Assembly (NCBI RefSeq): GCF_964213995.1
Contig: NC_135808.1
Location: 35,030,001 to 35,094,000 of the forward strand
Reading direction: 5' to 3'
Length of the DNA: 64,000 nt
From: Mustelus asterias
Taxonomy: Eukaryota
This document shows positions 21,738 through 59,650 of this stretch, piece by piece (within the stretch, counting starts at the first letter, position 1; each line of letters starts with the position of its first letter). A program made the position numbers and the translations under genes. The notes under the pieces were generated by a model that saw only the letters and a list, made by a program, of their open reading frames with translations, was not told where the DNA came from and ran no database searches.

Positions 21738-22287
21738 AATGTTATGCTTCCTGTGAACTGAAATTATAAACCCATTGATTGAGAAAGTATACCAGCCCAC
21801 AGTGACAGTGACCAATATATTGTGTACAGGACTCTTGCTGTACGCTCCTGTGTGTTTCAGTGAATAGGAACACACCATATTGACAAATCAGTTTAGTTAT
21901 ATAAGAAAAAATACATTTATTATAAGTTTCAGTTGACACCAAACTTTAAATCAAGCAAAATAAAAAAAATTTGAAAGTGATTCAAGATCTTTTCCAGAAC
22001 AAGAAATGAATCTTGGAAGAGTGTAAAGTGAACATATCACACCGTTATTACATCGAGGTATGATGGGTTGAGGGAACTCAGGTCTGTGGAGACTCACCCT
22101 CACTTCCTCACCATTCTCAGGAAAGTAGTCCTCCCAGACAGGAGAGTACAAACATTACCCATGGTATTAGTCAAACACTCATCACCTGAAGAGGATCTAT
22201 CTATAATTCACATCACCAACTAAAGCAGGGTCCGATTCTACCCCATACCCACTGACTCACTTTACTAACACACACAGTCACATCAGT
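21738..22287 (-). repeat. ZNF 3' flank module (X + Y) with no adjacent ZNF gene
   Basis: Paralogue of 12750-13790. Truncated at 22287, where LTR-retrotransposon-like sequence begins. Confidence 0.85.
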
Positions 22288-24219
22288 CAAGGGAAATCTA
22301 CACTGCCAGATAAATGTAGACCAAGGCAAGGGTCAAACCAGTCGCAAAATTGGATGTCATGGGAGAATTATTTTTTTTAGATTGCAGAAGGACACCAGGA
22401 TTAAGTAAAATATCAGAAGAGTTTATTTATTTTTATTCTTGTTTGGGGCAATCGCTGATGAAGTAATCCAAATGGAAGGCACCAAGGAATCCACAGCTAG
22501 CTTCAATGAAATATTAAATGCCTTTGATAAACATTTTAAACTCCAAGTCGTGGAGAGTACCGATCTTTGAAACAAAAGGTAAGGAATACCAATAAGTAAG
22601 TCCCAAAAGAACAAGAAGACACAGGACATGGGAGACAGGAGACTGTAAGCAATTGAGACAATACCCAAGGAAACTACAAGATGGTGACAGAACATGAGGT
22701 AGAATTATACGACCTCTCTCTTGCCAGCGGGATTTTCCATTCCCGCTGAAATAAATGGAGCTTTGAATGGCTCATTGCATTTTACGGCCCTGTCACTGAT
22801 GCAACAGAACTGTACAATTCCATCCCATTATCACCACAATGAACTGCAGGACCCAAAGAGTTCCCTTAAGAACGAGAGTTTAAGAATAGCAACTTCTGAA
22901 AATGTTGGCATTTTAACCAAACCAGAACAGCAGGTGGCAGTGTGGAGTGAGCAGCTGGCTGAGAATGATTGAAATCTGTCTTCAGCTTTTCTTTATTCAT
23001 TGGATGTGGGCATTACTGGCTGGAGCAGCATTTGTTGCCCATCACTAATTGCTCTTGAGAGTTGAGTGGCATTCAAGAATCAACTACATTGCTATGGATC
23101 TGGATCTTACCAGACCAGGTAAGGTTGGCAGATTTCCTTTGCTCAAGGACCAGATAGATTGTTGCAACCATCATCAACGCTTTCATGGTCATCATTAGAC
23201 TTTCAATTCCAGATTTAATTGAATTCAAATTTCACCACCTGCTGTGTTGTGATTTGAACCCAAATCGCCAGAACATTATCATGAGTCTCTTGATTGCTAA
23301 TCTAGTAACAGTACCACTACGCTACCACCATCTCCACAAAAGAAACAAAACCTGTTAAAATAAAATGAAACTATTCCACGGGAAGATGTTCATATCAAAG
23401 CTTAGTTGGAAGAACTCAACTTGAAGTACAGCCAGGCATGACAGCAAAAGGAAAATATTACCTTGAAAGACTCTGGAGAATCAGTCCGTACCCCTGGAAA
23501 AAAATTAGTTAACAAAAAGATGTTGAATACTACTTCAGAAAAAAAACTGCATTGGGATTATCAGAAACTCAAAGCAATGCATTGAAGCACAATGTGAGCT
23601 GGCAAGAGGTCAACAAGAAAATAAACAGTTAATTAACAATTAATTGTCCTTCAAAGTCAAGTGCAAAATAAATACACAGTCCTTCAGCAGCATGAAAAAT
23701 TGAAGACTCCCTGGGTCTTTTTCAGAGTGGCAGGCAGTGACTAATGGGACTAGTGGGATCTCGCAGGGATGAGTGCCTGTCAGCTATTCAAAATATATAT
23801 CAATGGTTTGGATGAAGGAACCAAATGTAATATTTCCAAGTTTGCTGACAACACAAAACTTGGTGGGATTGCGACAGGTGAGGAGGATGTCAAGAGGCTT
23901 CAATGTGACTGAGGCATGTTGAATGAATGGGCAGATATAGATGTAGTATAACATGGATAAATGTGCAATTATCCACCTCGGTAAGAAAAACAGATAGATT
24001 GGGAAATGTTGACATACAAAGGGATCTGGATGTCCTGGAACACCAGTCACTGAAAGCAAGCCTGCAAGCTGTTCGGAAGGCAAATGAGGACTGGAGTACA
24101 AGAGTAAGGATGCCTTACTGCAGCTGTACAGGGCATTGGTGAGGCCATACCTGGAGTACTGTGTGCAGTTTTAGTCTCCTTATCTAAGAAAGGATATACT
24201 TTCCTTTCGAACTTTCCTT

Positions 24220-25445
24220 TCCGAAGATGATTGATGAGGGTAGGGCAGTGGATGTTGTCTACATGGACTTCAGTAAGGCCTTTGACAAGGTCCCTCATGG
24301 CAGACTGGTGCAGAAGGTGAAGTCGCATGGGATCAGAGGTGAACTGGCAAGGTGGATACAAAACTGGCTCCATCAAAGAAGACAGAGGGTAGCAGTGGAA
24401 GGGTGCGTTTCTGAATGGAGGGCTGTGACAAGTGGTGTTCCTCAGGGATCAGTGCTGGGACCTTTGCTGTTTGTAATATATATATAAAAGATTTGGAGGA
24501 AAATGTAACTGGATTGATTAGTAAGTTTGCGGACGACACAAAGGTTGGTGGATTTGCGGATAGCGATGAGGACCATCAGAGGGTACAGCAGGATATAGAT
24601 CAGTTGGAGACTTGGGCGGAGAGGTGGCAGATGGAGTTTAATCCGGACAAATGTGAGGTAATACATTTTGGAAGGTCTAATACAAATAGGAAATATACAG
24701 TAAATGGCAGAACCCTTAGGAGTATTGATAGGCAAAGGGATCTGGGTGTACAGGTGCACAGGTCACTGAAAGTGGCAATGCAGGTGGAGAAGATAGTCAA
24801 GAAGGCATACGGCATGCTTGCCTTCATCGGCTGGGGTATTGAGTTTAAAAATTGGCAAATCATGTTGCAACTTTATAGAACCTTAGTGAGGCCGCACTTG
24901 GAACATAGTGTTCAATTCTGGTCGCCACACTACCAGAAGGATGTGGAGACTTTGGAGAGGATACAGAAAAGATTTACTAGGATGTTGCCTGGTATGGAGG
25001 GCATTAGCTATGAGGAGAGGTGGGAGAAACTTGGTTTGTTCTCACTGGAGCGACGGAGGTTGAGGGAAGACCTGATAGAAGTCTACAAGATTATGAGAGG
25101 CATGGACAGAGTGGATAGTCAGAAGCTTTTTCCCAGGGTGGAAGAGTCAATGACTAGGGGGCATAGGTTTAAGGTGCAAGGGGCAAGTTTTAAAAGAGAT
25201 GTACGAGGCAGATTTTTTACACAGAGAGGTGGGTGCCTGGAAATCGTTGCCGGGGGAGGTAGTGGAAGCAGATATGGTAGTGACTTTTAAGGGGCGTCTT
25301 GACGAGTACATGAATGAGATGGGAATAGAGGGATATGGTCCCCAGAAGCGTAGGGGGTTTTAGTTAAGGCAGGCAGCATGGTCGGTGCAGGCTTGAAGGG
25401 CCGAAGGGCCTATTTCTGTGCTGTAATTTTCTTTGTTCTTTGTTC
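24220..25445 (+). mobile_element. 5'-truncated CR1 nested in an older CR1 (host ~23715-24205 and ~25446-25910)
   Basis: RT motifs DFSKAFD, GVPQG, FADD; tail (TTCTTTG)n. The host RT frame resumes after the tail. Confidence 0.88.
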
Positions 25446-26184
25446 CCCAGAGGGAGTGCAACAAAGGTTCACCTGATTCCTGGGATATGAGACATTGGGT
25501 CAACTAGTCCTTTAATCAATAGAATCAATCAACAGAATCTAGAAGAATGAGACATGATCTCATTGAATCGTATAAGATTCTGACAGGGCTGGATAGACTG
25601 GCTGCAGGGATGTTGTTCCATCTGGCTGGAGGGTGTAGAATAAGGGATCACAGTCTCAGGATACATTTAGGACTGAGATGAGGTGAAGCTCCTTCACTCA
25701 GAGAATGATGAACCTGTGGAATTCTCTACCATAGAAAGTTGCGGAGGCCAAATCACTAAAAGAAAGAAATTATAGCTTTCTAGTTTCTAAAGGGGTATGA
25801 GGAGAGCATGGGAGCATTGGGTTGAGAAAGAGGATTAGCCACGATCATATTGAATGGTGGAACAGGCTCGATAGGCCAAATGACATATTCCTGCTCGTAC
25901 TTTCTATGGATCTAGGTAATAGCAGACTGGAGAAACAGCAGAAAAATGTCTAGAAGACCCTTCATTTACAAAACAAAGCAATCGAGCTTTGCAAAGAAAA
26001 GGAAAACCTATGAAGGACCTTCATATGTTACAAGATCTCTCAGGTCAAAATTTGTTCCTCTGGAAAATTGTGAAGAGGGGCAAATGAAATATAATGAACT
26101 GAAGAACCATTTGTCAGAGAAGAGCCAGCGATGTTCAACATTCCAGGAGGAAGTCAAGAGGTTACAAGAAAGTGTTTGCAAAGC

Positions 26185-27815
26185 TGGAGAACTAGCTGAA
26201 TATTTTTCATCTGTATTCACTAAGGAGGAAGACATTGCAGCTTCAGATTCTTGTTGGGATAGTGAAATTCTGGAGGATATTAAGATTAATAAGGAGGAGG
26301 TGTTAGATGTTTTAGCAGGCATAAAGGTACATAAATCCCCAGGGCCTGATGAGGCTGCTATGGGAGGCAAGAGAGGAGATTGCAGGGACCCTGATGGAGA
26401 TATTTAAATCTTCACTGGCCACAGGCGAAGTGCAAGATGACAGGAAGATAGCTAATGTGGTACCTTTACTCAAGAAATGCAGCAGGGTTAAGCCTACAGG
26501 CCAGTTAGTCTAACATAAATAGTAGGGAAGTTTTTGGAAATTCTGAGGGACAGGATTAATCAACACTTGGAAAGGCAGGGATTGATCAGGGATAGTCAGC
26601 ACAGATTAGTTGGTGGGAGATTCTGTCTAACTAATTTAATTGAGTTTTTTGAAAAGAAAGCTAAATATATTGATGAGGGTAGTGCAGTTGATGTGGTTTA
26701 CGTGGATTTCAGTAAGGCCTTTGATAAGGTCCCACATGGAAGGCTGGTCCAAAAGATTACAGCTCATGGGATCCAAGGCAAATTGGCAAATTGAATCCAA
26801 AATTGGCTTGTTGATAGGAGGCAAAGGATGATGGTGGAGAGCTGCTTTTGTGATTGGAAGCCTGTGACCAGGGGACCCCTGCTGTTTGTTATATACATTA
26901 ATAACTTGGATGTGAATGTAGAAAGTATAATTAGTAAGTTTGCAGATTACATGAAAATTGGTGGTGTTGTTGATAGTGAGGAGGATAGTCTTTTGCTACA
27001 GACTGATATTGATCAGCTGGTAAGCTGGGCAGAGCAATTGCAGTTGGAATTTAATCCTGATAAGTGTGAGGTGGTGCATTTTGGAATAATAAGGGTAGGA
27101 TATGCACGATTAACGGTAGGTCCCTAGGGAGTATTGAGGAGCAAAGGGACCTTGGTGTACAAGTCCATAGATCCCTGAAGGTGGCAGCACAAGTAGATAG
27201 GGTTGTGAAGAAGGCATACAGAATGCCTTCATTAGCCGGATATAGAATGTAGGAGCAGGGAGGTCTTGGTACAACTTCATAAAACATTGGTTAGGCCACA
27301 GATGGAGTATTGTGTGCAGTTCCGGTCGCCACACTATCAGAAGGACATTATTGCACTGGAGAGGGTGCAGAGGAGATTCATCAAGCTGTTGTCTGGGTTG
27401 GAAAGTTTCAGCTATGAGGAGGAACTGGACAGGCTGGGTTTGTTTTCTCTGGAACAGAGGAGGCTGAGGGAGGATCTGATATAGGTATACAAAACTATGG
27501 GAGGCGTAGTAGCTCATAAGATTCTAAATCACAGTAGGTCATAGGTTTAAGGTGAGGAGTCAGTGGTTTAGAGGGAATCTGAGGAAAATGTTTTTCACCC
27601 AGAGGATGATGGAAATTTGGAACGTGCTGCCTGAGAGAGTGGTAGAGGCGAGTACTCTCATAACATTTAAACAGCATCTGGACAAGCACTTAAATCGCCA
27701 AGGCAATTGGACCAAATGTTGGTAAATGGGATGAATATAAATTGGTATTTGATGGTTGGCATAGACACAGTGGACTGAAGGGCCTATTTCTGTGCTGTAT
27801 GACTCTATGACTATG
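26185..27815 (+). mobile_element. Degenerate 5'-truncated CR1 LINE
   Basis: Frameshifted RT pieces (KSPGPD, DFSKAFD, RVQRRF) and a TATGACTC tail. Confidence 0.85.
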
Positions 27816-28214
27816 AAAAGAGGAGGCATTGAAATGAAAAGATGAAGAGTCTTCTGAACAGATAACAGAATTACAGAACTGAAACTAGTTAAACTTCACC
27901 AGAGACAGACCTGGCCAACAGTAAAACCAAATGAAGAAGGACAAAGCTCTGCTGCAGATAGAGAAAGCCAGCATGCAGCTCACAAGCTGCACAACCAACT
28001 TTTTTTTTCAGATCATCCAAAACTTTGTGCAAAACAAAATGGAGGCGAGGCTCACGCTGTTACGTTGGGGGGGACTGGAGGAGAGGGGGGAGGGGGGACG
28101 GGGGGGTATGGGGGGGAGAGGGGGACGGGGGGAGGGGGACGGGGGGGGGACAGGGGGGAGCTGGCAGCTAGGAATCGAGAGCTCTATTATAAAACACAGG
28201 AACCCCCACCCCAG

Positions 28215-30386: not shown

Positions 30387-30389
30387 TTT

Positions 30390-31660: not shown

Positions 31661-33903
31661 TTCTCACTATGATCCAACACAGAAAACACAGTTGTGGTGC
31701 AGTGTTCTATAAAGCAAAACAAGCAATGACTATTCTTTAGAAATTGGCTGTTTTTTACCACAGGACACGTCCAGATCTATCGAAGCACAAGAAGCACATC
31801 TTCAGCATGGAGATGGTTAGGTGGATTGGCCATACTAAATTCTCCCTTAGTGTTAGGGGAACTAGCTAGGGTAAATGCATGGGCTAATTGGGGTTGGGCC
31901 GGGGTGGGATTATGGTCGGTGCAGACTTGATGGGCCAAATGGCCTCCTGCACTGTAGGATTCTATGATTCTGTGATAATTTTTTGCATCATTAACTTCCA
32001 GGAAGATTATGGAGGACCACACAGAAAAAGAAAACCTGGGTCCAGTCAATGAATAAACGTAGTGAACATTTCCTCCGGAAGGAACAAGATAAGCCAATGA
32101 TATCTGACCAAAGAAGACGATGGTTGATAAGGAAAAATAGGACACAGAAAAGCGTGAGAAGCAAATCATTTAAAGAGACTCAAGTATCTGAAACAACAAA
32201 TACTACAATAGAAACTCCAAACATGCACAGTCAGGCTGAAGCAACTGCGACTACACCTCCTCTGAATGTGAAAAGAACAAGTCATAAAGCTTCCAGATTG
32301 TCTGAACTTGTAAAATCAGAGACTTTAGGCGGAAAGCATGGAGAGTGTATTGTAAATATAGTTGGGTAAAGACTTGGAAGGGGAAGATATGGTACAAAGG
32401 TGTTTCGGAGAGTAATGTGGGACTACAGAGGCAGTACCGCCCATTTTCTGATGTACAGATTCACATAATAGTGGACTGAGTATAGCAGTAAGGTCTTTTA
32501 GGAGCTAGCACAAGGTAGCACCAAATCATACAGTGCAGAAGAGGCCATTCAGCCCATTGAGTCGGCACCGACTCTCTGACAGAGTAATTTACCCAGGCCC
32601 TCTCCACTGACCTGTCCCTGCACATTTACCATGATACATTAACTAACCTACACATCTTGGGAAACTAAAGGGCAATTTAGCATGGCCAATCCACCTAACC
32701 AGACCCACGCAATCACAGGGAGAACGTGCAAACTCTACACAGTCACCCAAGGCCAGAATTGAACCCAGGTCCCTGATGCTGTGAGGCAGCAGTACTAACT
32801 ACTGTGCTACCATGCCGTCCATAATGAGAGCTATATCTCAGAGATAGTTATATAGTTATGATTTACTAATAAACATTTAACCGTACCAGCTTCCAGGCCT
32901 CTGTGTGAGACACCAGACAACAATACCCCCCTTCTCTTTCTTCACACTCCAATCTCCCTCCTCTTCACCACCCCCCTCCCCCTCATCCCATCTCAGCTCT
33001 CAGCATCCTTGTAGACTGACACTGTCCCAGTCTCGGTCCTTCCACAGCTGAGAGCTGACTTTCCTGATGCTCTGCAGTTCAAACACACTCACCATTTTCC
33101 TCACAATGTGTACCCCAGCCCAATCCTTTGTGGATGGACAATTATGTTAATTCCAAAAACTGTATGCTGAGGGAGAATGAATGAAGCTTGTCTGTGCCTT
33201 AAATCAGGTTTATTTCCCAGAACTCCAATTCCTCCCTGATGATCAGAGTGAACTGGTGTACATATTTGTACAATGATTCCCTAATTTGGCAATGGCTATG
33301 TTGAATTGTCAATTTAAAGCATGCACTTCACGGCAACACAACAACACTAACAACTCACTCCCAACGTCACCTTCAGATTGGGGGAGAATTGAGCCAGGAA
33401 TAAGGATTTCAATTTCTGCTCTACCATGGAAGGTGCTCACTCTCCTTCACCCCTGTCAACCATATCCCACTCCCACCTCGCAATTATCAAGGTGAAAGAT
33501 GGGCACTGCACTTTAGGATGTTCCGAGATTTCCTGTCCTATCCACCCATCTTGTGTTTGTACTGAGACATTGTCAATCCCTAAGATAATCAGCACTGCTC
33601 TAATCAACTGGAACATCCCAGTCAATTGAGTCTTCGAACCTTCCTGCACCATTAGTCTCTGCACCATGCATCAACTTGTTTACATTTAGGCTGAGCACAC
33701 TGGAGTTGCTGCTGATAATCTTTGTGGTTTCCTGTAACTGTTGACCTAATCTGTGGAGCAGTTCTTAAAGCTTTTTGTGTATCTGTTAGACTACAGTTAG
33801 ACAGGGCACAGCTCAAAGGAATTACCCAGTCTGAACTGGGCACAACGCAGAGCCATAAGGATTCCTCACAAACTGTTCAACCAGTCTGTTGAGGGAAGTA
33901 AAA

Positions 33904-33952
33904 ATGATTGGACTGTTAATGCTGCTCCTTTTGTGTGGAGGGGTCACTGCAG
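33904..33952 (+). CDS. UAA: MHC class I exon 1, signal peptide MIGLLMLLLLCGGVTA
   Basis: AAAATG start, hydrophobic core, CAG|GTGAGT donor; phase 1 joins the alpha1 frame (V-SHTLRY). Confidence 0.85.
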
Positions 33953-34816: not shown

Positions 34817-36092
34817 GTTGTGTTGGGGTTTATTTACAGGGGCTCTGTGCTGTGTTGGGGTTTATTTACAGGGGCTCTGTGCTGTGTTGGGGTTTATTTA
34901 CAGGGGGCTGTGTGTTGTGTTGGGGTTTATTGACAGGGGGCTGTGTGTTGTGTTGGGGTTTATTGACAGGGGGCTGTGTGTTGTGTTGGGGTTTATTGAC
35001 AGGGGGCTGTGTGTTGTGTTGGGGTTTATTTACAGGGGGCTGTGTGTTGTGTTGGGGTTTATTTACAGGGGATCTGTGTTGTATTGGGGTTTATTTACAG
35101 GGGGCTGTGTGTTGTGTTGGGGTTTATTTACAGGGGATCTGTGCTGTGTTGGGGTTTATTTACAGGGGCTCTGTGCTGTGTTGGGGTTTATTTACAGGGG
35201 GCTGTGTGTTGTGTTGGGGTTTATTGACAGGGGGCTGTGTGTTGTGTTGGGGTTTATTGACAGGGGGCTGTGTGTTGTGTTGGGGTTTATTTACAGGGGG
35301 CTGTGTGTTGTGTTGGGGTTTATTTACAGGGGATCTGTGTTGTATTGGGGTTTATTTACAGGGGGCTGTGTGTTGTGTTGGGGTTTATTGACAGGGGGCT
35401 GTGTGTTGTGTTGGGGTTTATTTACAGGGGGCTGTGTGTTGTGTTGGGGTTTATTTACAGGGGATCTGTGTTGTATTGGGGTTTATTTACAGGGGGCTGT
35501 GTGTTGTGTTGGGGTTTATTGACAGGGGGCTGTGTGTTGTGTTGGGGTTTATTTACAGGGGGCTGTGTGTTGTGTTGGGGTTTATTTACAGGGGATCTGT
35601 GTTGTATTGGGGTTTATTTACAGGGGGCTGTGTGTTGTGTTGGGATTTATTGACAGGGGGCTGTGTGTTGTGTTGGGGTTTATTTACAGGGGGCTGTGTG
35701 TTGTGTTGGGGTTTATTTACAGGGGATCTGTGTTGTATTGGGGTTTATTTACAGGGGGCTCTGTGTTGTGTTGGGGTTTATTTACAGGGGGCTCTGTGTT
35801 GTGTTGGGGTTTATTTACAGGGGGCTGTGTGTTGTGTTGGGGTTTATTTACAGGGGGCTGTGTGTTGTGTTGGGGTTTATTTACAGGGGGCTGTGTGTTG
35901 TGTTGGGGTTTATTTACAGGGGGCTGTGTGTTGTGTTGGGGTTTATTTACAGGGGGCTGTGTGTTGTGTTGGGGTTTATTTACAGGGGGCTGTGTGTTGT
36001 GTTGGGGTTCATTTACAGGGGGCTGTGTGTTGTGTTGAGGTTTATTTACAGGGGGTTCTGTGTTGTGTTGGGGTTTATTTACAGGGGGCTCT
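34817..36092. repeat. 33/32-bp GT-rich minisatellite, ~39 copies, in MHC intron 1
   Basis: Unit GTGTTGTGTTGGGGTTTATTTACAGGGGGCTGT with variants TATTGAC and GGGGATCT. Confidence 0.97.
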
Positions 36093-36153
36093 GATGTCTC
36101 TGTCTCTTGCCCTCTGTGGGGTTCATACCCTATCATCTGTCTCTCTGTTTCAG

Positions 36154-36414
36154 TCTCTCACACACTCCGGTATTTCTACACTGCGATGACTCCAATTCCT
36201 GGCCTTCCCGAATTTGTAGCTGTTGGCTTTGTAGATGAGATCCCGATTGATTACTACGACAGTGATCTTCGGAAATTGGTTCCACAGCAGCAATGGATGG
36301 AACAGTCTCAGAGCGCTGAATACTGGGAGCAGCAGACACAGTTCCTGAGGAGCTCCGAGCATGTTGGACAGACCAATATTCAGACAGCCTTAAATCGCAC
36401 CAACCAGAGTGGCG
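36154..36414 (+). CDS. UAA: MHC class I alpha1 exon
   Basis: SHTLRYFYTAMTPIPGLPEFVAVGFVD...EYWEQQT...NRTNQSG with Y7, Y59, R84 and the N86 sequon. Acceptor TTTCAG, donor GTGAGC, 261 bp. Confidence 0.95.
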
Positions 36415-37769
36415 GTGAGCTTTCACTCTCTCCAACTCCCACCCCTGCGTCACTCTATCTCCCCCATGTTTATCCGTGCCCCCCCACCCCCCCACCAAGT
36501 ATCTCTCTCTCTCTCTCCTCCTAACCTCCCTGTATCTCACAATAATTTTGAACATTATAAAGGTTGGCCCTTTGAGTCTTCTCCATTATTCAATAGGTTC
36601 CTAGCTGATCCTCCAGCTCAGCTTCACCTTCCTGTCACATCCCAATACCACTTCATTCTCTTAGTATCCCAAAATCTATTAACCTGTTATAAATACTGCC
36701 AGGGTCTGAACATCCAGGGCACAGAATTCCGAAGATTCACAAGTTCTTTGAGTGAAGACCTTTCTCTTCAATTCCGTTCTGAACGGCTGACCTTATCCTG
36801 AGTGTGTCCCCGTGTTTTCTGACGGTCATTCAGATTTGAAATATTGGCTCTGCTCTCTAACTGTCAGACCTGCTGAGGTTTTCGAACATTTTCTGTTTTT
36901 GTCCCCGTGTTCTCCGTTCCCTAGCCAGGGGACGTGACTTCTCAAGTCTCCATCCTTTTTGTTAAGTTTATTTATTAGTGTCACAATCCTGTCAAGTCCC
37001 TTACGAAGTAGGAACAGAGGTTATCTCCAGCTCACTTGATGTAATTAGACTCCCGAACTCTATCCATGGACCTCTTGGGTAGGGCAATTCCTCAAGATTC
37101 ACCACCCTCACATGAAGCAATTCCTTCTCCTCCCCTCAGTCCTCAATGATCTGTCTGAGACTTTTTCCTCTGATACTAGACTCACCAGCCAGAGGAAACA
37201 TCTTATTCACATCCACCATGTCACCAGCAACCTCCCCTCCCCTCCACGAAGGATTTTGCATGTTTCAATTAGGTCACCCCTCAGTCTTAACGCCAGTGAA
37301 AACAGACCCAGTCTCCTCAATTTCTCTCTATTGGACAGTCCTGCTGTCCCAGGGATTTGTCTGATGAACCTCCGTTGTATTCTTTCTGTATAAACTTTCT
37401 TAGGTAAGGGGACCCAAACTTACACAGTGCTCCAGCTGAAGTCATACAAAGTCCCTGTAAAGCTGTATTAAGAGATCTTTACTCCTGTACTCTAATCACC
37501 TTGTAATTAAGGCCACCATAAAATTTACCTTTAATTGCTTGCTGCACTTGCATTTTAACTTTTAGTGACCCATGATAAGGATACATGGGTCTCTTTGAAC
37601 ATCCACACTTCCCAAATTTTACATGTTACAATGAAATCACCTTTCATTAAGACACCAGGTGTAGTCTACTCAATTTCTCCTCAGAGGACATTTGTCTGAT
37701 CTCAGGAACCAGTCTAATGAACCTTTGTTGTACAGCCTCAGGGACACGTATGTCCGTTCTTGGATAAAG

Positions 37770-38068
37770 TTCATTTATTAATGTCATAAGTAGGCTTACA
37801 ATAACACTAATGAAGTTACTGTGAAAATCCCCAAGTCATCACACTCTGGCGCCTGTTCAGGGACACTGAGGGAGAATTTAGCATGGCCAAAGCACCTAAC
37901 CTGCATGTCTTTTGGACTGTGGGAGGAAATCAGAGCACCCGGATGAAACCCACACAGACACGGGAAGAATTTGCCGACTCCACACAGACAGTGACCCAAG
38001 CTGGGAATCAAACCCGTGTCCCTGATGCTGTGAGGCAGCAGTGCCAACCACTGTGCCACCATGCCTCC
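37770..38068 (-). mobile_element. HE1/V-SINE-like element (further copies at ~31805-31972 +, ~32525-32820 -, ~43360-43668 +, ~59650-59915 +)
   Basis: tRNA head plus V-SINE core, as at 10894 and 11180. Confidence 0.8.
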
Positions 38069-38743
38069 CACGGTGTCACAGGGTAAGGAGACCAAAACTG
38101 TGCACAGCCTTCCAGGTGTCGGCCTATGTCATTGCAATAAGACTTCAATCCCTTTTTAACAAAGGCCAACATATCATTTGCTGGATAGATTCTTGATAAG
38201 CAAAGGGGTGAAAGGCTATCGGAGGTAGACAGGAGGTGAAGTTCAGGTTACAATCATATCAGCTATGGATATTATTGAATGGTGGAGCAGGTTCAAAGGG
38301 TTTACTTCCTGCTCCTAATTCATAATTTTGTATATGCGCACGCACATTATTGAAACCATTTTGAAAATGCAAGTACACCACATCCACTGGTTCCCCTTCA
38401 TTCATTACATCTTTAAAAACCTCTAGCAGATTTGCAAAACATGATTTCTTTCATTAATCCACAGTAATGCTATTTAATCATATTAAAGTTCTCTAAGTTG
38501 CCTGTTACCATGTCCCTAACAAGTTTCAATGTTTGTTTCTTGTTAATGTTAGGCTATGGTTTCCCGGTTTCTCTCATCCTCATTTATTAAACAGCAGGTG
38601 TATGTTTGCTTCCTTCCAATCATTGGGAATGGTTTGAGATTGAAGGACCTTGAGAAGTCACATCCTCTCCCTGCCCTCTGCTGATTGACGGGTAAATGCG
38701 GGTGGACTGGCTCTGATTGGCTGTGTGTGTGTGTGATTGACAG

Positions 38744-39016
38744 GGATCCACACGGTCCAGGTAATGCACAGCTGTGAGCTCAGGGATGACGGACAAACCA
38801 GTGGATTTCACCAGGAAGGTTGGGACGGGAATGATTACATCAGCTTCGACAAGGATCACATGGTATGGGTCACCCCGGTAGCCTGGGGAGTGATCACCAA
38901 GAACAAGTGGGATCAGGACAAGGCCAGGAATCAGCAGAGGAAGGCTTACCTGGAGACAACCTGCATCGAGTGGCTGAAAAAATACCTGGAGCAGGGAAAA
39001 CAAGATCTGAAACCCA
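38744..39016 (+). CDS. UAA: MHC class I alpha2 exon
   Basis: GIHTVQVMHSCEL...WDGNDYISFD...ITKNKWD...YLETTCIEWLKKYL with T143, K146, W147, Y159, W167, Y171 and both cysteines. 273 bp; donor GCGAGT. Confidence 0.95.
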
Positions 39017-39356
39017 GCGAGTATGGAGGGGCCTAAAGAGTAGGGTACTGAGTAAGGGGGTTTGAGATGTGGGGGAGGGGGGGGGTGAGAGTGAGGCGGC
39101 AATACTGAGAGTGAGGTGGAGGGGAGGGGTGTTGAAAGAGGTGGGGAGGGTTGAGAGTAAGGGGGGTGGGGGGGAGACTGAGAGTCAGTTATTTAATCAC
39201 TGGTCTAAAGTGGCATGTACATTCTGGGGTCTAATCTCCAGTTTAAAGAGGTTTGTACCATTTCCTGGGGTCAGGAGTCTAATCTCCAGTTTAAGGTGTA
39301 TATGTACCATTCTCCGTCTCTCATTGATGAGGCTCTGATCTGTTTTGCTCTCTCAG

Positions 39357-39629
39357 TTGTTCCACAAGTATTTCTTTCTGTGGACAAGATGTCAGACACC
39401 AAACCGGCCCAAATGTCCTGTTTGGTCTCGGGATTTTACCCTCGTGATATCGAAGTCACTCTGCTGAGAAATGGTGAGCCAATCATGGACACGTATTCCA
39501 CTGGCGTCCTGCCCAATCATGATCGGACCTACCAACTGCGGAGATGGGCTCAGATCACCCCTAAAGATGGAGCCACCTACTCCTGTCAGTATGAACAGAG
39601 TGAAACAGAAGTGGAGACCAGAGACTGGG
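39357..39629 (+). CDS. UAA: MHC class I alpha3 (Ig C1) exon
   Basis: SCLVSGFYPRDIEVTLLRNG...GVLPNHDRTYQ...YSCQYEQ...W. Acceptor CTCTCAG, donor GTAAGA, 273 bp. Confidence 0.95.
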
Positions 39630-42191: not shown

Positions 42192-42317
42192 ATGGGGTGT
42201 TCAGAGTTATTCCAGGATCTAGATGAGAAACATACTTTGGTTTGGATGTTGGAATTGTTGTTGCTGTTGTTGCACTGATTACCATTATCATTTGTGCGAT
42301 TGTGTGGAAGAGAGCAG
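42192..42317 (+). CDS. UAA: MHC class I connecting peptide/TM exon with in-frame TGA
   Basis: DGVFRVIPGSR*ETYFGLDVGIVVAVVALITIIICAIVWKRA. Strong acceptor CCCCACAG, donor GTAGGA, 126 bp. Confidence 0.85.
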
Positions 42318-42487: not shown

Positions 42488-42523
42488 GAGTAGAGAAAAA
42501 AATTGCTTATCGCCCAGCAAATC
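42488..42523 (+). CDS. UAA: MHC class I cytoplasmic exon (GVEKKIAYRPAN)
   Basis: Acceptor CTTGTAG, donor GTAAGT, 36 bp; conserved cytoplasmic Y-x-P-A motif. Confidence 0.8.
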
Positions 42524-42920
42524 GTAAGTGAATAAACAAGACAAACTTGGAGCTGTGTGTCTGTCTGTCTCTCTTGATGCATTACTGTTTCTCACTGTCA
42601 GTGTCCACCTGTCTGCCTTGGTAAGGCTGTGCCAGTCTCTCTTGGGAAGAGTGTGCCTGTCTATAAGTGTGTCTGTCTGTCTCTGTTGGCGTCTTTCTCT
42701 TTCGGTGTGTTGTGTGTCTCTTTCTGTGCGCGTGCGCGTGTCTCTGCCTCTCTCTGTATATCTTTGTAGAGAACATTCCCCATGTTGTAAAATGTTTAAC
42801 AGAAACCTTTCATTTCGTAGGTGCTGATAGTGGGGAAATCATCCTCCCAGGTCTGAGGTACGGAGTCACTCACTGGAGTTTAACAACATCATCAAACCAG
42901 GACCTGTGGATTTGGGGAGA

Positions 42921-51343: not shown

Positions 51344-54300
51344 AACAAAGAACAAAGAACAATACAGCACAGGAACAGGCCCTTCGGCCCTCCAAGCCCG
51401 CGCCGCTCCCTGGTCCAAACTAGACCATTCTTTTGTATCCCTCCATTCCCACTCCGTTTATATGGCTGTCTAGATAAGTCTTAAATGTTCCCAGTGTGTC
51501 CGCCTCCACCACCTTGCCTGGCAGCGCATTCCAGGCCCCCACCACCCTCTGTGTAAAATATGTCCTTCTGATATCTGTGTTAAACCTCCCCCCCTTCACC
51601 TTGAACCTATGACCCCTTGTGAACGTCACCACCGACCTGGGGAAAAGCTTCCCACCGTTCACCCTATCTATGCCTTTCATAATTTTATACACCTCTATTA
51701 AGTCTCCCCTCATCCTCCGTCTTTCCAGGGAGAACAACCCCAGTTTACCCAATCTCTCCTCATAACTAAGCCCCTCCATACCAGGTAACATCCTGGTAAA
51801 CCTCCTCTGTACTCTCTCCAAAGCCTCCACGTCCTTCTGGTAGTGTGGCGACCAGAACTGGACGCAGTATTCCAGATGCGGCCGAACCAACGTTCTATAC
51901 ATTTGCAACATCAGACCCCAACTTTTATACTCTATGCCCCGTCCTATAAAGGCAAGCATGCCATATGCCTTCTTCACCACCTTCTCCACCTGTGACGCCA
52001 CCTTCAAGGATCTGTGGACTTGCACACCCAGGTCCCTCTGCGTATCTACACCCTTTATGGTTCTTCCATTTATCGTATAGCTCCTCCCTACATTATTTCT
52101 ACCAAAATGCATCACTTTGCATTTATCAGGATTGAACTCCATCTGCCATTTCTTTGCCCAAATTTCCAGCCTATCTATATCCTTCTGTAGCTTCTGACAA
52201 TGCTCCTCACTATCTGCAAGTCCTGCCAATTTTGTGTCGTCCGCAAACTTACTGATCACCCCAGTTACACCTTCTTCCAGATCATTTATATAAATCACAA
52301 ACAGCAGAGGTCCCAATACAGAGCCCTGCGGAACACCACTAGTCACAGGCCTCCAGCTGGAAAAAGACCCTTCCACTACCACCCTCTGTCTTCTGTGACC
52401 AAGATGTGGAGATGCCGGCGTTGGACTGGGGTAAACACAGTAAGAAGTTTAACAACACCAGGTTAAAGTCCAACAGGTTTATTTGGTAGCAAAAGCCACA
52501 CAAGCTTTCGGAGCTCTAAGCCCCTTCTTCAGGTGAGTGCTCTCCACTCACCACTCACCTGAAGAAGGGGCTTAGAGTTCCGAAAGCTTGTGTGGCTTTT
52601 GCTACCAAATAAACCTGTTGGACTTTAACCTGGTGTTGTTAAACTTCTTATTCTGTGACCAAGCCAGTTCTCCACCCATCTAGCCACCTCCCCCTTTATC
52701 CCATGAGATCCAACCTTTTTCACCAGCCGACCATGAGGGACTTTGTCAAACGCTTTACTAAAGTCCATATAGACGACATCCACGGCCCTTCCCTCGTCAA
52801 CCATTTTGGTCACTTCTTCAAAAAACTCCACCAGGTTAGTGAGGCATGACCTCCCTCTCACAAAACCATGCTGACTATCGTTAATGAGTTTATTCCTTTC
52901 TAAATGCGCATATATCCTATCTCTAAGAATCTTCTCCAACAACTTCCCCACCACGGACGTCAAGCTCACCGGCCTATAATTACCCGGGTTATCCTTCCTA
53001 CCTTTCTTAAATAACGGGACCACATTAGCTATCCTCCAATCCTCTGGGACCTCACCTGCATCCAGTGACGAGACAAAGATTTGCGTCAGAGGCCCAGCAA
53101 TTTCATCTCTCGTCTCCCTGAGCAGCCTTGGATAGATTCCATCAGGCCCTGGGGATTTGTCAGTCTTTAAATTCTCTAACAAACCTAACACTTCCTCCTT
53201 TGTAATGGAGATTTTCTCCAACGGTTCAATACTCCCCTCCAAGATACTCCCAGTCAACACATCCCTCTCCTTTGTGAATACCGACGCAAAGTATTCATTT
53301 AGGATCTCCCCTACTTCTTTGGGCTCCAAGCATAATTCCCCACTTTTGTCCCTGAGAAGTCCGATTTTTTCCCTGACAACCCTTTTGTTCCTAACGTATG
53401 AATAAAATGCCTTGGGATTCTCCTTAATCCTGTCTGCCAAGAACATTTTGTGACCCCTTTTTGCTCTTCTAATTCCCCGTTTGAGTTCTTTCCTACTTTC
53501 TTTGTACTCCTCCAGAGCTCCCTCCGTTTTTAGCTGCCTGGACCTACCATACGCCTCTCTTTTCTTTTTGACCAGTCCCTCAATTTCCCTGGTTATCCAC
53601 GGTTCTCGAATCCTACCCTTCCTATCCTTCTTTTTAACAGGCACATGCCTGTCCTGTAGCCCTAACAACTGTTCCTTAAAAGACTCCCACATGCCAGATG
53701 TGGATTTACCTTCAAACAGCCTCTCCCAATCAAGAGCTGCCAATTTCTGCCTAATCCCACTAAAGTTAGCCTTCCCCCAATCCAACACCTTACCCTTGGG
53801 ACACCACTCATCCTTTTCCATCACTATCCTAAAGCTAACAGAATTGTGGTCACTATTTGCCACATGTTCCCCTACCGAAACTTTGAAGACCTGACCGGGC
53901 TCATTCCCCAGTACGAGGTCCAGTATAGCCCCCTCTCTAGTCGGGCTATCTACATATTGTTCCAAAGAACCCTCCTGTACGCATTTTACAAATTCCTCCC
54001 CATTCAGAGTCCCTGCTCTCAGCGATTTCCAGTCTATACCAGGGAAATTGAAGTCTCCCACTACAACAACCCTATTTTTCCTGCACCTATCCAGTATCTC
54101 CTGACATATCCGTTCTTCCACTTCCCTTGGGCTGTTGGGGGGCCTGTAGTACACCCCCAACATAGTGACTGCGCCCTTCCTGTTTCTAAGCTCCACCCAG
54201 AGTGACTCGTTACACGACCCCTCTGAATTGTCCTCCCTCTGCACCGCTGTAATATGCTCTCCAACTAATACTGCTACTCCCCCACCTCTTTTGGCCCCTC

Positions 54301-54790
54301 CTCTGTCTCGCCTAAAACACTTGTACCCCGGAATATTCAGCTGCCTGTCCCTCTTTCAACCAAGTCTCTGTCACCGCAACCACATCCAAATTCCTCGTGA
54401 GCATTAAGGCCCTAAGTTCATCTGTCTTTCCTGCTACGCTCCTTGCATTGAAGTATAAGCACTCCAGACCTCCAGGCCCAGTGAGGTCATCCTCCCCCAG
54501 AGTGCTCTTCTTCTTTGCCAGCCTTGTCCCAGCCCCAAGCTCGTCCCCAGCCTCTACACTTGTAGACCTAATATTTTGATCCCCTCCCCCCTGCCATACT
54601 AGTTTAAATCCCCCCGAACTGCATTAGCAAAACTCCCAGCCAGGATATTCGTGCCCTTCCAACTTAGTTGTGACCCGGCCTTCTTGTACAGGTGCCATCC
54701 TCTCCTGAAAACTTCCCATTGATCTAGGAAAATGAAGCCCTCCCTCCTGGACCAGTCCTTTAGCCAAGCATTCAATTTTACTAACTCCCT
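51344..54790 (-). mobile_element. CR1 element D: ORF1 C-terminus plus nearly complete ORF2
   Basis: ORFs 52625-54244 and 51420-52382. TSD ATAAG at 51339-51343 and 54791-54795. (TTGTTCT)n tail. Confidence 0.92.
52404..52650. mobile_element. Penelope-derived inverted pseudo-LTR hairpin element with hammerhead ribozyme core
   Basis: 99-bp arms 52441-52539 and 52552-52650 (1 mismatch), each with CTGAAGA-stem-GAAAGCTT. 13-bp TSD TTCTGTGACCAAG at 52391-52403 and 52651-52663. Confidence 0.88.
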
Positions 54791-55363
54791 ATAAGTGTGT
54801 GGTGGTTCATTTTGGCAAGTCGAATAGGATGAAAGAATATAATATTAAGGGTAAGATGCTTGGCAGTGTGGAAGATCAGAAGGATCTTGGGGTCCGGGTT
54901 CATAGGATGCTCAAAGCAGCGTCGCAGGTAGAGGCTGTGGTTAAGAAGGCATATGGAATACTGGCCTTCATCAATAGAGCAATTGAGTTTAGAAATCAGG
55001 AGATAATGCTGCAGCTGTATAGGACCCTGGTCAGACCCCACCTAGAGTACTGTGCCCAGTTCTGGTCGCCTCATTACAGAAAGGATGTGGAAGCCATAGA
55101 AAGGGTGCAGAGGAGATTTACAAGGATGTTGCCTGGATTAGGTGGCATGCCTTATGAGGATAGGTTGAAAGAGCTAGGTCTTTTCTCCTTGGAGAAGCGA
55201 AGGATGAGAGGTGACCTGATAGAGGTGTATAAGGTGTTGAGAGGTATTGATGGAGTGGATTCTCAGAGGCTTTTACCCAGGGCTGAAATGGTTGCCACAG
55301 GAGGTCACAGGTTTAGGGTGCTGGGGAGTAGGTACAGAGGAGATGTTTGGGGTAAATTTTTCA

Positions 55364-56127
55364 AAGAACAAAGAACAATACAGCACAGGAAACAGGCCCT
55401 TTGGCCCTCCAAGCCTGTGCCGCTCCTTGGTCCAACTAGACCAATCGTTTGTATCCCTCCATTCCCAGGCTGCTCATGTGACTATCCAGGTAAGTCTTAA
55501 ACGATGTCAGCATGCCTGCCTCCACCACCCTACTTGGCAGCGCATTCCAGGCCCCCACCACCCTCTGTGTAAAAAACGTCCCTCTGATATCTGAGTTATA
55601 CTTCGCCCCTCTCACCTTGAGCCCGTGACCCCTCGTGATCGTCACCTCCGACCTGGGAAAAAGCTTCCCACTGTTCACCCTATCTATACCCTTCATAATC
55701 TTGTACACCTCTATTAGATCTCCCCTCATTCTCCGTCTTTCCAAGGAGAACAACCCCAGTCTACCCAATCTCTCCTCATAGCTAAGACCCTCCATACCAG
55801 GCAACATCCTGGTAAACCTTCTCTGCACTCTCTCTAACGCCTCCACGTCCTTCTGGTAGTGCGGCTACCAGAACTGGACGCAGTACTCCAAATGTGGCCT
55901 AACCAGCGTTCTATACAGCTGCATCATCAGACTCCAGCTTTTATACTCTATACCCCGTCCTATAAAGGCAAGCATACCATATGCCTTCTTCACCACCTTC
56001 TCCACCTGTGTTGCCACCTTCAAGGATTTGTGGACTTGCACACCTAGGTCCCTCTGTGTTTCTATACTCCTGATGACTCTGCCATTTATTGTATAACTCC
56101 TCCCTACATTATTTCTTCCAAAATGCA
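55364..56127 (-). mobile_element. CR1 element E, 5'-truncated, nested in element C
   Basis: RT C-terminal ORFs 55436-55846 and 55865-56131. Tail as in element D. Short TCA duplication/microhomology at the junctions. Confidence 0.88.
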
Positions 56128-57866
56128 TCACTCAGAAGGTGGTGGGTGCGTGAAATTGGCTGCCGGCAGTGGTGGTGGAGGCGGATTCGATAGGGTCTTT
56201 TAAGAGACTTTTGGATAAGTACATAGAAGTTAGTAAGATAGAGGGTTATAGGTAAGCCTAGTAGGTAGGGACATGTTCGGCGCAACTTGTTGGCCGAAGG
56301 GCCTGTTTGTGCTGTAGCTTTTCTATGTTCTATGTTCTAGTACAGGTACAGCACTGGCATTTACCCAGGATATGGAGGAATGTGAAAAATTGCCCAGGTA
56401 TGTCCTATCCACAAAAAGCAGGACAAATCCAACTCAGCCAATTGCCTCCCCTTTGCAGTTTTCTGAAAAATCTGTTACTTTATTTTTTGGTTGCCCTTCA
56501 GTCGCATGCTCCTGATCTTCAGGCAGCTGGTGCGGAGAAGGATTCAGGGAGAGAGGGGAACCTCCTCATGGACTTGCTCTGGGGCCAAGCCAGCTGGCCA
56601 TTCATAGGTCCAGGCAATGGATAGTCATAGGGGTCATCCATTCCAACTATCTGCCCCTCTCCCTGGAAAGGGAGCATGCAGTGTCTGCTCGCACCATCAA
56701 GACCTTCCGTGTCGTGTCTTATTGACTCCTTCATTTTATTTTGATGTTTTAAGTTTTTTTTGAGATTCTGTTTTTATTTTGATGCAGTATCTCTTTAAGG
56801 GGCTGCCTTTTAATTTATCCCTCAATTTGTTGCTTTAGTTCATTTGTTTACCTAAGAAAAGCACAGCAATAACATGATGCTCGGTTTGGGCTCCACTAGG
56901 GTCACTCAGCTCCTGACCTCATTGCAGCCTTTGTTCAAACATGGACAAAAGAGCAGAATTCCAGAGATCAGAGTGACTACTCTTGGTACCAAGGCAGTGT
57001 TTGACCGAGCACGGCCTCAAGGAGCCCCAGCAAAACTGGAGTCAATCGGCATCAGGGGGGAAACACCCTCTGCTGGCTGGAGTCATACCTGGCACAAAAG
57101 AAGATAGTTGTGGTGGTTGGAGTTCCTCAGAGTCGTGTCCTAGACCCAACCATTTGCAGCTGCTTCATCAATGACCTTCCTTCCATCACAAGGTCAGAAG
57201 TGGGGAATGTTCACTGATGATTGCACAACGTTTACGAGACAGACTACAAGGCTTCATGAAGGCAGCTCACCATCAGCTTTCCAAGCACAGCTGGACCCTA
57301 TCCAGCACAGCTGGGGCTGGGTAACAAATGCTTGCGTTGCCATCAATGCCCACATTCCATGAAGAAATCAATAAGTAATCCTTGTCAAAGCCCATGGATA
57401 AGTGTTTATTATTCTGAATTGTGCTCATAGAATTGCATTGATTTAATTAATAATTATGGTATCTTATTTAAAACATTTATTGAAACATCAGGTCAAAAGA
57501 GCATCAAGGTGTGGGCTGTAAGGGGATGGAATAAACTTTCACTTCTCTATAATTATCAAGTATTTAGCTATTCAATATCTGCAGGGATCAATTGCAATAT
57601 GCAAATTATCTCGAGATCTGAAAGGGCATGTTTAACATAGACCCACATTTGGCAAGCACAACTGTTTAATTCAAGGACAGATGCATCCTGTAATGAACAA
57701 CTGCGTACTGAATAGCAAAGCAGATTTTTTTAAAAAGGTGTGAAACTTTTAGATGTTGATTTTCAAAGGTGTACTTGTACAAGGAAAACAAAGTTAGCTT
57801 GCAGGTAAGGTGAATAATTCAGAAAAGAAATGGCATGTTGGTCTTTATTGCAAAGGAATCTGACGA

Positions 57867-59023
57867 CAAGAATAAGTGGTTTCCACTGACACAAACCAAT
57901 GCAAGGTTTCTCCCAACATGCAGGTAACATCATCTCCACTTTCCAGGCAAATACTGTCCCTTTAACCCGTCTTCAGTTTATCCTACAACCCAAACACAGT
58001 CATTACTTTGAAATGTCAACTGATATGTAAAGTTAGGGTGGCACAGTGGTTAGCACTGCTGCCTCACAATGCCAAGAGGCTGTAATGTCCAGTCACTGAA
58101 TATATTCAAGATGGAGATTGATGGATTTTTGGCTGTAAAGGGAATAAGGGATATGGGCATAGTGTGGAAGGTGGGATTGAGGTAAAAGATTAGCCCTGAT
58201 TGTATGAATGGGGCAGCAGGAATAGAGGCTGAATGGCCTACTCCTCTTATTTCTTCTGTTCGTTGTGTTCGCTGGGTGATTACACAGGTTATTACATTCT
58301 TGAACAGGAAGTCATTATAACCGGCATGGTCAATTTAATAAAACAGTTTGAGGAGATCATTAACATGCCTGGAATTGGAGGAAGCCTTGTGACACGGGTT
58401 GATGAGTTGTTTGTGAGATCAGAAACAGAGAGTCGGGATAAGGAGAATGTTCTTTCATTTTCAGGATGTGCCCAGTAGTGTTTCTTTGGGATGTGTACTG
58501 GAGACTCAGCTTTTCATTATATAACAAGAGATTCAACCTCCTTAGTAAACCACGGTTCCCTCACACCACTGCTAACCACTGTGCCACCCTAACTTTACAT
58601 ATCAGTTGACATTTCAAAGTAGTGACTGTGTTTGGGTTGTAGGATAAACTGAAGACAGGAGTTAAAGGGACAGTATTTGCCTGGAAAGTGGAGATGATGT
58701 TACCTGCATGTTGGGAGAAACCTTGCATTGGTTTGTGTCAGTGGAAACCACTTATTCTTGTGGATAATGGGTCCATGCTGGATAGGGTCTCTGGAGGTTT
58801 GTCTACATGGACTTCCAAAGGCATTTGACAATGTCCTGCACAGGAGATTATTCACCAAGATGAACGTGCCTGGAATTGGAGGAAGCCTTGTGACACGGGT
58901 TGATGAGTTGTTTGTGAGATCAGAAACAGAGAGTCGGGATAAGGAGAATGTTCTTTCATTTTCAGGATGTGCCCAGTAGTGTTTCCTTGGGATGTGTACT
59001 GGAGACTCAGCTTTTCATTATAT
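57867..59023. repeat. Interleaved inverted (57867-58055 / 58570-58760) and direct (58366-58521 / 58867-59023) duplications
   Basis: Direct sequence comparison; both pairs are nearly identical. Confidence 0.9.
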
Positions 59024-59129
59024 TGATCAGTGACTTTGGTGAACAAATAGTCTGAGGTTGTTTACTGATGATACTAAGTGAAGTGACACAGTTGTTAATG
59101 TGGATGGGAGTGGAAAAAGGACAGATGAA

Positions 59130-59650
59130 GTGACAAATCAGGTAGTCTGATTTAAGCTAAAAAGTGAATTTACTATGAGTTATAAATCTACACATTGAGA
59201 GAACAGCAGAAAAACATTACATTACAACAAACTTTGAATCAACCAAAATAACAAGTATTCAAAGTATTTGAAAATTATTCAAGATCTTTCCCAGAACATG
59301 AAATGAATCTTGGAAGAGTGTAAGGTGAACATATCACACCATTATTACATCAAGGTATGATGGGCTGAGGGAACTCAGGTCTCTATAGACTTACCACCAC
59401 TCCCACACCATACTCAGGATAGTAATCCTCCCACACAGGAGAGTACAACCATTACCCATGGTTAGTCAAACATCCAATGCCTGGAGAGGGTCTGTATAAA
59501 TTCACATCACCAACACAGGGTCTGATTCTATCCCATACCCACTCTGGAGAGCTGGCTTACTTTGCTAACACACGCACATCAGGGGAAACTCTCTCAGAAT
59601 CCTACAGACAGAGTTTCTTTAAAATCCCTGTGCTTTAGTCTGGCTCCCAA
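59130..59650 (-). repeat. ZNF 3' flank Y module downstream of ZNF C
   Basis: Paralogue of 13340-13862 and 21880-22287. Confidence 0.85.

Follow-up and report, generated by a model that had tools for sequence, protein, structure and literature searches.

The window, that is, the whole 64-kb stretch of DNA analyzed here, contains three minus-strand C2H2 ZNF paralogues (A, B, and C), four copies of a module termed Y, and one plus-strand MHC class I gene. The class I gene lies inside a 36.8-kb LINE-rich block (22298–59121), at least 13,389 bp of which is CR1-type LINE ORF2, with a Y copy at either side. The module orders that the sequence-only reading had described were upheld: SINE-X-Y1-Y2-ZNF B at 12305–14340 and, at the C slot, a SINE remnant-X-Y3 at 21612–22297 with Y4 (59122–59650) adjoining ZNF C; its observation that the class I gene is oriented opposite to all three ZNFs likewise stands. 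A Pfam scan of the 300 longest of the 467 unmasked stop-free frames of at least 40 aa gave curated-level matches to three class I exons only; as that reading had it, domains of TAP, PSMB, and tapasin were absent from these matches. The window showed neither another class I gene nor the remains of one.

The coding frames of ZNF A (6595–7416, a C2H2 array), ZNF B (15419–16747), and ZNF C (60567–62105) are arranged in tandem on the minus strand. Homology in their 3′ flanks reaches to 5838 in A and begins at 14352 in B and 59941 in C, and the three have a common splice acceptor (7847, 17203, and 62563, respectively). Neither KRAB nor SCAN was matched in ZNF A, and KRAB had no match among the window's ZNFs. 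Each gene is accompanied by a minus-strand module, Z, at 10037–10787 (A), 18404–18912 (B, 96% identical to that of A), and 63254–64000 (C, 95% identical to that of A and cut by the window end). Z likely comprises a promoter, a non-coding exon 1 (donor near 10335 in A), and the start of an intron; the copy of A carries CCAAT, CRE-like, and ETS-like motifs. The putative promoter modules are 95% identical, and the rest of the cassettes 80–88% identical. Z is not supported as a solo LTR or DNA transposon, being devoid of terminal repeats and, by eye, of a target-site duplication, and the idea of a promoter common to the ZNFs and the class I gene was rejected, as none of six orthologue N-terminal extensions mapped to Z. 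With their tandem, co-oriented genes, common flanks, and partial copies, the ZNFs form an array of the birth-and-death type, in support of the earlier proposal. ZNF A has no adjoining X or Y copy within the window. In an orthologue search for synteny, generic C2H2 proteins dominated, and no shark ZNF stood among the best 120 of the 6030 matches.

In cassette B, a full-length plus-strand SINE (12305–12745), which we take to be a DeuSINE, is joined by its tail to X (12746–12872). X is followed by Y1 (12873–13340), which contains the head and middle of Y and ends at a TCTG microhomology, and by minus-strand Y2 (13337–13861), from which the initial ~20 bp of the module are missing. Y1 is interrupted at 13050–13237 by unrelated sequence, CR1-like by eye. 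The piece at 13870–14340 is RTE-like by eye and has no Pfam match. On the minus strand, Y2 shows splice acceptors and donors as well as an AATAAA at 13365, and Y is likely a spliced ZNF 3′ UTR. At the left of the block, an internally deleted copy of cassette B's SINE and X (21612–21861) precedes Y3 (21862–22297, minus strand), which is near-complete, lacks the last ~70 bp, and has AATAAA at 21921 and no ZNF next to it. At the right, Y4 (minus strand) is a complete Y with head and tail but no X, situated between a LINE fragment on its left and a tRNA-type SINE (59651–59916) on its right. The SINE of cassette B is an interspersed repeat, since a further copy with 70% identity occurs at 9681–9864; its junction with X falls at the identical point in cassette B and at the C slot, evidence in favor of segmental duplication. 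The idea that Y derives from a class I leader exon by decay was rejected: when X and Y were aligned locally to the block, scores did not rise above shuffle level (best 104 against a null maximum of 102 from 12 shuffles), with the other nine of ten comparisons under their null maximum.

If X and Y belonged to a repeat interspersed throughout the genome, or if the block were misassembled, the pattern would say nothing about cassettes. A local templated insertion at 58359–58761, made of a direct copy of 58860–59023 and an inverted copy of 57866–58061, creates a 97–98% duplication at 57.9–59.0 kb, only ~100 bp from Y4, and lends this some substance. We nonetheless consider it very improbable: all four Y copies are co-oriented and occur, within the window, solely in cassette context; two of them carry the identical SINE junction; Y3 and Y4 differ too much for a haplotype artifact (14%); and the whole window contains no N and has no Rfam match. 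Matches to Y greatly exceeded chance expectation, with nhmmer E-values of 1e-23 to 1e-180, and the next in-window match had 0.65; the profile was built from Y2–Y4, so that only the two Y1 matches are independent.

The class I gene comprises seven plus-strand exons: a leader exon (33904–33952), alpha1 (36154–36414), alpha2 (38744–39016, with a GC donor next to it), alpha3 (39357–39629), a connecting peptide and transmembrane exon (42192–42317), and two cytoplasmic exons (42488–42523 and 42821–42857), the last of which is, by eye, out of frame relative to the orthologues' C-terminus. Intron 1 harbors a 33-bp minisatellite of 38.9 copies (34817–36090). The 5′ flank (33803–33903) matches the N-terminal extension of the horn shark orthologue with a score of 59 against a shuffle maximum of 52 (n = 15). 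Because the introns, whose loss would mark retroposition, are kept and the 5′ flank is common to the horn shark, the gene is not a retrocopy.

The alpha1–alpha3 exons are open, and exon 5 contains an in-frame TGA (42224–42226), 91 nt from the exon end and ahead of the transmembrane segment. Compensating exon 5 frameshifts, a signature of sequencing error, were rejected because the orthologues, whose transmembrane exon is open, align in the stop-bearing frame; with R or Q as the catshark residue at this site, the TGA is explained by one substitution. The window gene consequently does not encode the membrane-anchored heavy chain of classical class Ia, and the stop would yield either a null or a secreted form. 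Relaxed selection on alpha1–alpha3 was not supported, as there is no excess of changes at otherwise invariant sites (10/164 in the window gene, 10/164 in S. torazame, 20/174 in Heterodontus, and 4/158 each in Chiloscyllium and Stegostoma). The ectodomain is intact and apparently still constrained.

In a class I tree from which UDA, UEA, and UCA sequences were left out, the window gene fell, apart from UAA and UBA, into an eight-row clade (support 100/97) with proteins of Scyliorhinus (2 species), Chiloscyllium (2), Stegostoma, and Heterodontus. By eye, the clade proteins match 'Gcirratum_UAA-2' of the Verissimo query file (PMC10751288) in alpha1, alpha2, and alpha3, so that the window gene matches nurse shark UAA-2, of the MHC-Ia-like lineage, as its probable orthologue; other orthologues occur in catsharks, bamboo, zebra, and horn sharks. 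A literature search found no description of the UAA-2 lineage. Cross-species identity of 78–90% in alpha1 and alpha2 argues against high groove polymorphism. Amino-acid divergence from other orders is 18–35% per domain (one partial model left aside), compared with a corrected non-coding divergence of 13–23% between cassettes, so that the UAA-2 lineage probably predates the cassettes. The gene is a member of an old cross-order lineage rather than the fresh class I paralogue previously envisaged, although the age of a lineage is no proof of how long it has occupied its position. In Heterodontus, two scaffolds each bear a copy, and the two are nearly identical (174/176 residues), which indicates either that the lineage can duplicate or that these are uncollapsed haplotypes.

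The Scyliorhinus canicula orthologue lies on a contig of 163,470,629 bp, and the MHC-bearing chromosome 13 is ~163 Mb long, the final gene on it extending to 163.38 Mb; from this agreement in size, the orthologue would map to the MHC chromosome. Both catshark 'MHC-Ia like' loci are inside the MHC. These placements lend no support to a location outside the core MHC, which had been suggested as possible. Among the frames scanned, no TAP or PSMB8/9 was matched in the 64-kb window, which is shorter than the class Ia region with its span of 87 kb to 1.9 Mb (PMC10751288). A survey of sharks and rays describes MHC-Ia-like genes as being surrounded by ZNF genes in multiple copies (PMC10751288, section 5), and such flanking ZNFs are present in the window.

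The proposal that the block fills a site left empty in cassette B was not borne out by the junctions. Y3 extends ~100 bp beyond the end point of Y1, Y4 begins ~20 bp ahead of the start point of Y2, and the Y1|Y2 joint with its TCTG microhomology is missing from both block ends; judged from its sequence, this microhomology joint is a derived one without a counterpart at the C slot, and cassette B offers no matching empty site. The block ends show no terminal repeats or target-site duplication, their comparison being at shuffle level (scores of 26 and 25 against shuffle means of 25.7 and 25.1), and no 6-mer is common to the two junctions. The tree of the four Y copies is star-like, and as far as their sequences tell, the copies are of equal age. 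Its best topology, (Y1,Y4),(Y2,Y3), has three of five informative sites in 185 columns and is predicted by neither insertion model; the AU test rejected none of the three topologies (p = 0.215, 0.214, and 0.787), including the insertion topology with its zero-length branch. Given the differing junctions, the missing repeats, and that branch, transposition into an empty site finds no support.

Y3 and Y4 overlap by ~420 bp with 360/421 positions identical, and this repeat at the block flanks could be a long flank duplication. The class I block may be an old insertion, in which template switching brought it into cassette C, as a copy or by relocation, and duplicated ~420 bp of Y, with the tandem Y of B arising separately. 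A single event would then yield X-Y3-block-Y4-ZNF C, with direct repeats at the block ends and, as found, no ZNF, Z, X, or Y remnant inside the block. However, this explanation predicts Y3 and Y4 as sisters, favored by one of five sites; it requires two independent duplications of nearly one segment; at 14% Y3/Y4 divergence it cannot be recent; and an association with ZNFs has been described for sharks and rays at large (PMC10751288). We regard this explanation as improbable.

Because no tree was rejected, co-duplication of ZNF and class I also has to be weighed. Here X-Y-class I-Y-ZNF would have doubled whole, and the B copy would then have lost its class I block by microhomology-mediated deletion. 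A single deletion from a C-type slot yields B's junction exactly, with the left break inside a Y3-like copy, the right break ~20 bp into a Y4-like copy, and TCTG common to both, and it accounts for the two Y copies in both intergenic regions. But the predicted tree, (Y1,Y3),(Y2,Y4), has one of five informative sites and a zero-length branch, the window holds no trace of the second class I gene, and an identical junction would result if an entire ZNF cassette lying between two Ys were lost. We rate co-duplication as unlikely, though slightly ahead of an old insertion. Its boldest extension, with the ZNF cassette as an engine of shark MHC class I birth and death, Y1|Y2 marking where a UAA-2 paralogue was deleted, and the remaining gene encoding a secreted, conserved-groove molecule, is a long shot.

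The explanation we favor, and consider probable, is that an old UAA-2 gene resided in the MHC while ZNF cassettes were duplicated and partly deleted around it several times. It builds on the identity and exon structure of the class I gene, the equal-age Y copies, the common SINE-X junction, and the microhomology joint of cassette B. The cassette would consist of SINE-X-Y (likely a spliced 3′ UTR), a finger exon, and promoter module Z. X-Y3 would be the stump of a cassette minus its ZNF, in line with the ZNF loss at the C slot that had been raised before as one possibility, and Y4-ZNF C would be another cassette that lost its X. The Y1|Y2 of cassette B would represent a derived deletion or duplication scar rather than a pre-insertion site, and LINE insertions would later have widened the block. 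Against this explanation, two deletions are required at the C slot, and the lost ZNF or its promoter left no remnant in the block.

A ZNF-flanked layout of shark class I is already published (PMC10751288) and would not surprise a shark MHC specialist. Like the window, the elasmobranch MHC-Ia-like genes of Verissimo et al. 2023 (PMC10751288) are UAA-related class I genes with multicopy ZNFs on both sides; that description is one paragraph, partly unpublished, without cassette anatomy, and the window gene differs from it by the stop ahead of the transmembrane segment. In the catshark table, a plus-strand 'MHC-Ia like' locus lies 0.28 Mb from MHC-IIB and a 5-kb minus-strand locus follows 15.5 kb on, as here; the neighbors are unnamed, so they are only presumptive ZNFs, and the catshark orthologue of the window gene is tied by gene ID to neither of the two 'MHC-Ia like' loci. 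The window adds the base-level anatomy of ZNF array turnover around an MHC-Ia-like gene, and this anatomy is relevant to a published proposal in which the ZNFs isolate these genes from UAA.

By eye, nurse shark UAA-2 resembles the window gene's clade throughout alpha1–alpha3, including a long-strand alpha3, but UAA-2 orthologues, unlike the window gene, have an open transmembrane exon. The stop-bearing UAA-2 would represent either the recent loss of a lineage that several shark orders have retained or a secreted class I molecule. Among relatives with a solved structure, classical nurse shark UAA (PDB 6LUP) gives the best match to alpha1 and alpha2. Like UAA, the window gene keeps eight peptide-terminus anchor residues in the 6LUP chain alignment, at positions that we take from HLA numbering. 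It differs in its identity to UAA (50/65/41% in alpha1/2/3), its separate clade, a groove conserved across orders, and no TAP or PSMB beside it in the window. Finally, the chicken MHCY blocks (Goto et al. 2022, PMC9635633) likewise combine class I and ZNF loci with dense retroelements and segmental duplication. MHCY, however, has 45 polymorphic class I loci, KRAB-ZNFs, and lectins and is apart from MHC-B, whereas the window has one class I gene in 64 kb, no KRAB match, and an orthologue placed on the MHC chromosome.

Self-comparison, open reading frames, Pfam scanning and profile searches confirmed the layout proposed in the sequence-only reading, although its first interpretation was overread: co-oriented C2H2 zinc-finger (ZNF) genes, copies of the modules X and Y that adjoin ZNF 3' sides, and a class I block between the third and fourth Y copies. 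The self-comparison, ORF list and Pfam scan place three such genes on the minus strand of the window, ZNF A (6595–7416), ZNF B (15419–16747) and ZNF C (60567–62105), which have in common a splice acceptor (at 7847, 17203 and 62563, respectively) and, upstream, a module termed Z. Profiles derived from the window's own sequence matched Y at 12880–13049 plus 13238–13340 (Y1), 13337–13860 (Y2), 21880–22290 (Y3) and 59131–59650 (Y4), and matched X only ahead of Y1 and Y3; the next-best matches in the window had E values of 0.65 or more, and neither module was detected adjoining ZNF A. The SINE ahead of X is full length in cassette B and cut down to three pieces ahead of X-Y3 (21612–21730; identities of 44/57, 20/21 and 63/76, the last being the tail running into X). 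Because the SINE-X junction is identical in position at both copies, segmental duplication is favored over independent repeat insertions. By simple pattern match, minus-strand acceptors occur in all four Y copies, donors in three and AATAAA in two, suggesting that Y is probably a spliced ZNF 3' UTR.

Past the stop codon of each ZNF, decayed fingers lie in the present 3' flank (5838–6594, 14352–15418 and 59941–60566). The Z modules (10037–10787, 18404–18912 and 63254–64000), each probably a ZNF promoter with exon 1, are 95–96% identical and the distal introns of A and C 97.5% identical. Identity is only 80–88% in the proximal introns and in the sequence flanking the finger exons, with a step near 63250. 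The high Z identity suggests gene conversion or the recent spread of one promoter across older genes.

Cassette B had been read as the empty counterpart of the site occupied by the class I gene. An insertion into B's arrangement would leave B's ends intact, but the junctions do not match. In B, Y1 breaks off inside Y and is fused by TCTG microhomology to Y2, from which the first ~20 bp of the module are missing; Y3 extends ~100 bp past this breakpoint and Y4 has the full Y head, so that the flanking copies overlap by ~420 bp (identity 360/421). Over the portions present in all four, Y1–Y4 differ by 13–18%, comparable figures for the cassettes being 12–20% raw and 13–23% corrected. The Y alignment holds 185 ungapped columns with five two-state informative sites, one grouping (Y1,Y3),(Y2,Y4), one (Y1,Y2),(Y3,Y4) and three (Y1,Y4),(Y2,Y3); the inner branch has zero length in the first two topologies, and the AU test retained all three (p = 0.215, 0.214 and 0.787). 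Together, the mismatched junctions and the Y divergence and trees indicate that B's Y1/Y2 joint is derived and that the four Y copies are of the same age as the cassette radiation. The two block ends resemble each other no more than shuffled sequences do, in either direct or inverted orientation, and have no 6-mer in common. An old insertion with duplication of its flank appears improbable.

At least 13,389 bp of the 36.8-kb block (22298–59121) match LINE ORF2, and a profile search of the block found no remnant of X, Y, Z or a ZNF (best E 0.05). We consider it unlikely that a ZNF and the class I gene were duplicated together with loss later. The window has 787 stop-free frames of at least 40 aa, 467 of them lying largely clear of masked LINE, ZNF and tandem-repeat sequence; among the longest 300 of these 467, only the three class I exons passed curated Pfam cut-offs, four weak matches fell below, and, as originally noted, no domain of TAP, PSMB or tapasin appeared. 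Since the published size of the class Ia region ranges from 87 kb to 1.9 Mb (PMC10751288), this absence tells little about MHC location. A templated insertion of ~400 bp (58359–58761) consists of direct and inverted copies of nearby sequence (within 57866–59023; 97–98% identical) and is either a recent repair event or an assembly artefact. A near-intact CR1-type LINE at 704–4658 carries an open esterase-like ORF1 (GDSL match slightly below cut-off), an endonuclease-RT ORF2 of 964 aa and a terminal 7-bp repeat tail.

The class I gene has seven exons (33904–33952, 36154–36414, 38744–39016, 39357–39629, 42192–42317, 42488–42523 and 42821–42857). Intron 3 has a GC donor (39017–39018), and the Scyliorhinus canicula model P0002 lacks the alpha3 start, just past the matching junction. 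A 33-bp minisatellite of 1.27 kb with extreme strand skew (34817–36090) sits just ahead of the alpha1 exon and is a possible length marker. The peptide-terminus anchor residues, by HLA numbering, are retained. Across shark orders, alpha1 and alpha2 (36154–39016) are better conserved (78–83%) than alpha3 (65–74%); such a groove, with its anchors, suggests a fixed ligand for this lineage.

Searches with alpha2 and alpha1 gave 34 matches from 44 candidates and 15 from 148, respectively. In a tree of the window ectodomain and 27 of the 34 alpha2 matches (omitting three fused or multi-domain models, three unnamed records and one redundant teleost), the gene clusters with proteins of S. canicula, S. 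torazame, two Chiloscyllium, Stegostoma and Heterodontus (support 100/97), apart from the classical UAA; identities are 78–83% for alpha1, 80–90% for alpha2 and 65–85% for alpha3 (57% for one partial model). By eye, these proteins agree with the sequence labelled 'Gcirratum_UAA-2' in the PMC10751288 query file. Two near-identical Heterodontus copies on separate scaffolds (174/176) and two Pristiophorus members of the wider clade count against strict single copy. In S. canicula, the orthologue is carried by a contig of 163,470,629 bp, a length consistent with that of chromosome 13, where the catshark MHC resides; the contigs that hold the C. plagiosum orthologue and a UAA-group gene of that species have the same length. 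Chromosome 13 carries two 'MHC-Ia like' loci (PMC10751288), either of which could be P0002: for one, the distance to MHC-IIB is 0.28 Mb and that to TAP1 ~8 Mb, and for the other, TAP2 is 0.4 Mb away. One catshark 'MHC-Ia like' model on NC_052158.1 spans 47 kb, and 41 bp separate its start from the head of a neighbor on the minus strand (43,662,932/43,662,973), hinting at a bidirectional promoter; the white shark table lists several comparable head-to-head pairs; orthologue N-terminal extensions gave no support for such a promoter.

Amino-acid divergence of the gene across orders is 18–35%, compared with 13–23% among non-coding cassette sequences, and we infer that the gene is older than the cassettes. 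We think it probable, though well short of certain, that an old MHC-resident class I gene had ZNF cassettes duplicated and deleted around it. X-Y3 would then be a cassette minus its ZNF, Y4-ZNF C a cassette minus its X, and the Y1/Y2 joint a scar.

Exon 5 contains, before the transmembrane segment, an in-frame TGA (42224–42226), where catsharks carry R or Q, 91 nt ahead of the next junction; under the 50–55 nt rule, a stop so far upstream would trigger decay. In our reading, exon 7 is seemingly out of frame relative to orthologue tails, which suggests a genuine stop followed by a decaying tail. The ectodomain is intact, and its otherwise invariant sites carry no surplus of changes (10/164, as in S. 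torazame); the gene is either a null of recent origin or codes for a secreted form. Soluble class I is known in salmon (Sasa-ULA; PMC2846915).

Among the openly accessible articles searched, we found no description of UAA-2, this cassette anatomy or a secreted shark class I, and the accessible portions of PMC9992475, PMC12562908 and PMC11958417 do not mention zinc fingers. The window is a new instance of an arrangement already reported: PMC10751288 states that, in the sharks and rays whose genomes it surveyed, MHC-Ia-like genes near UAA are ringed by multiple ZNF copies, and that MHC-I genes are confined to the MHC. In chicken MHCY, too, duplicated blocks contain both class I and ZNF loci (PMC9635633).
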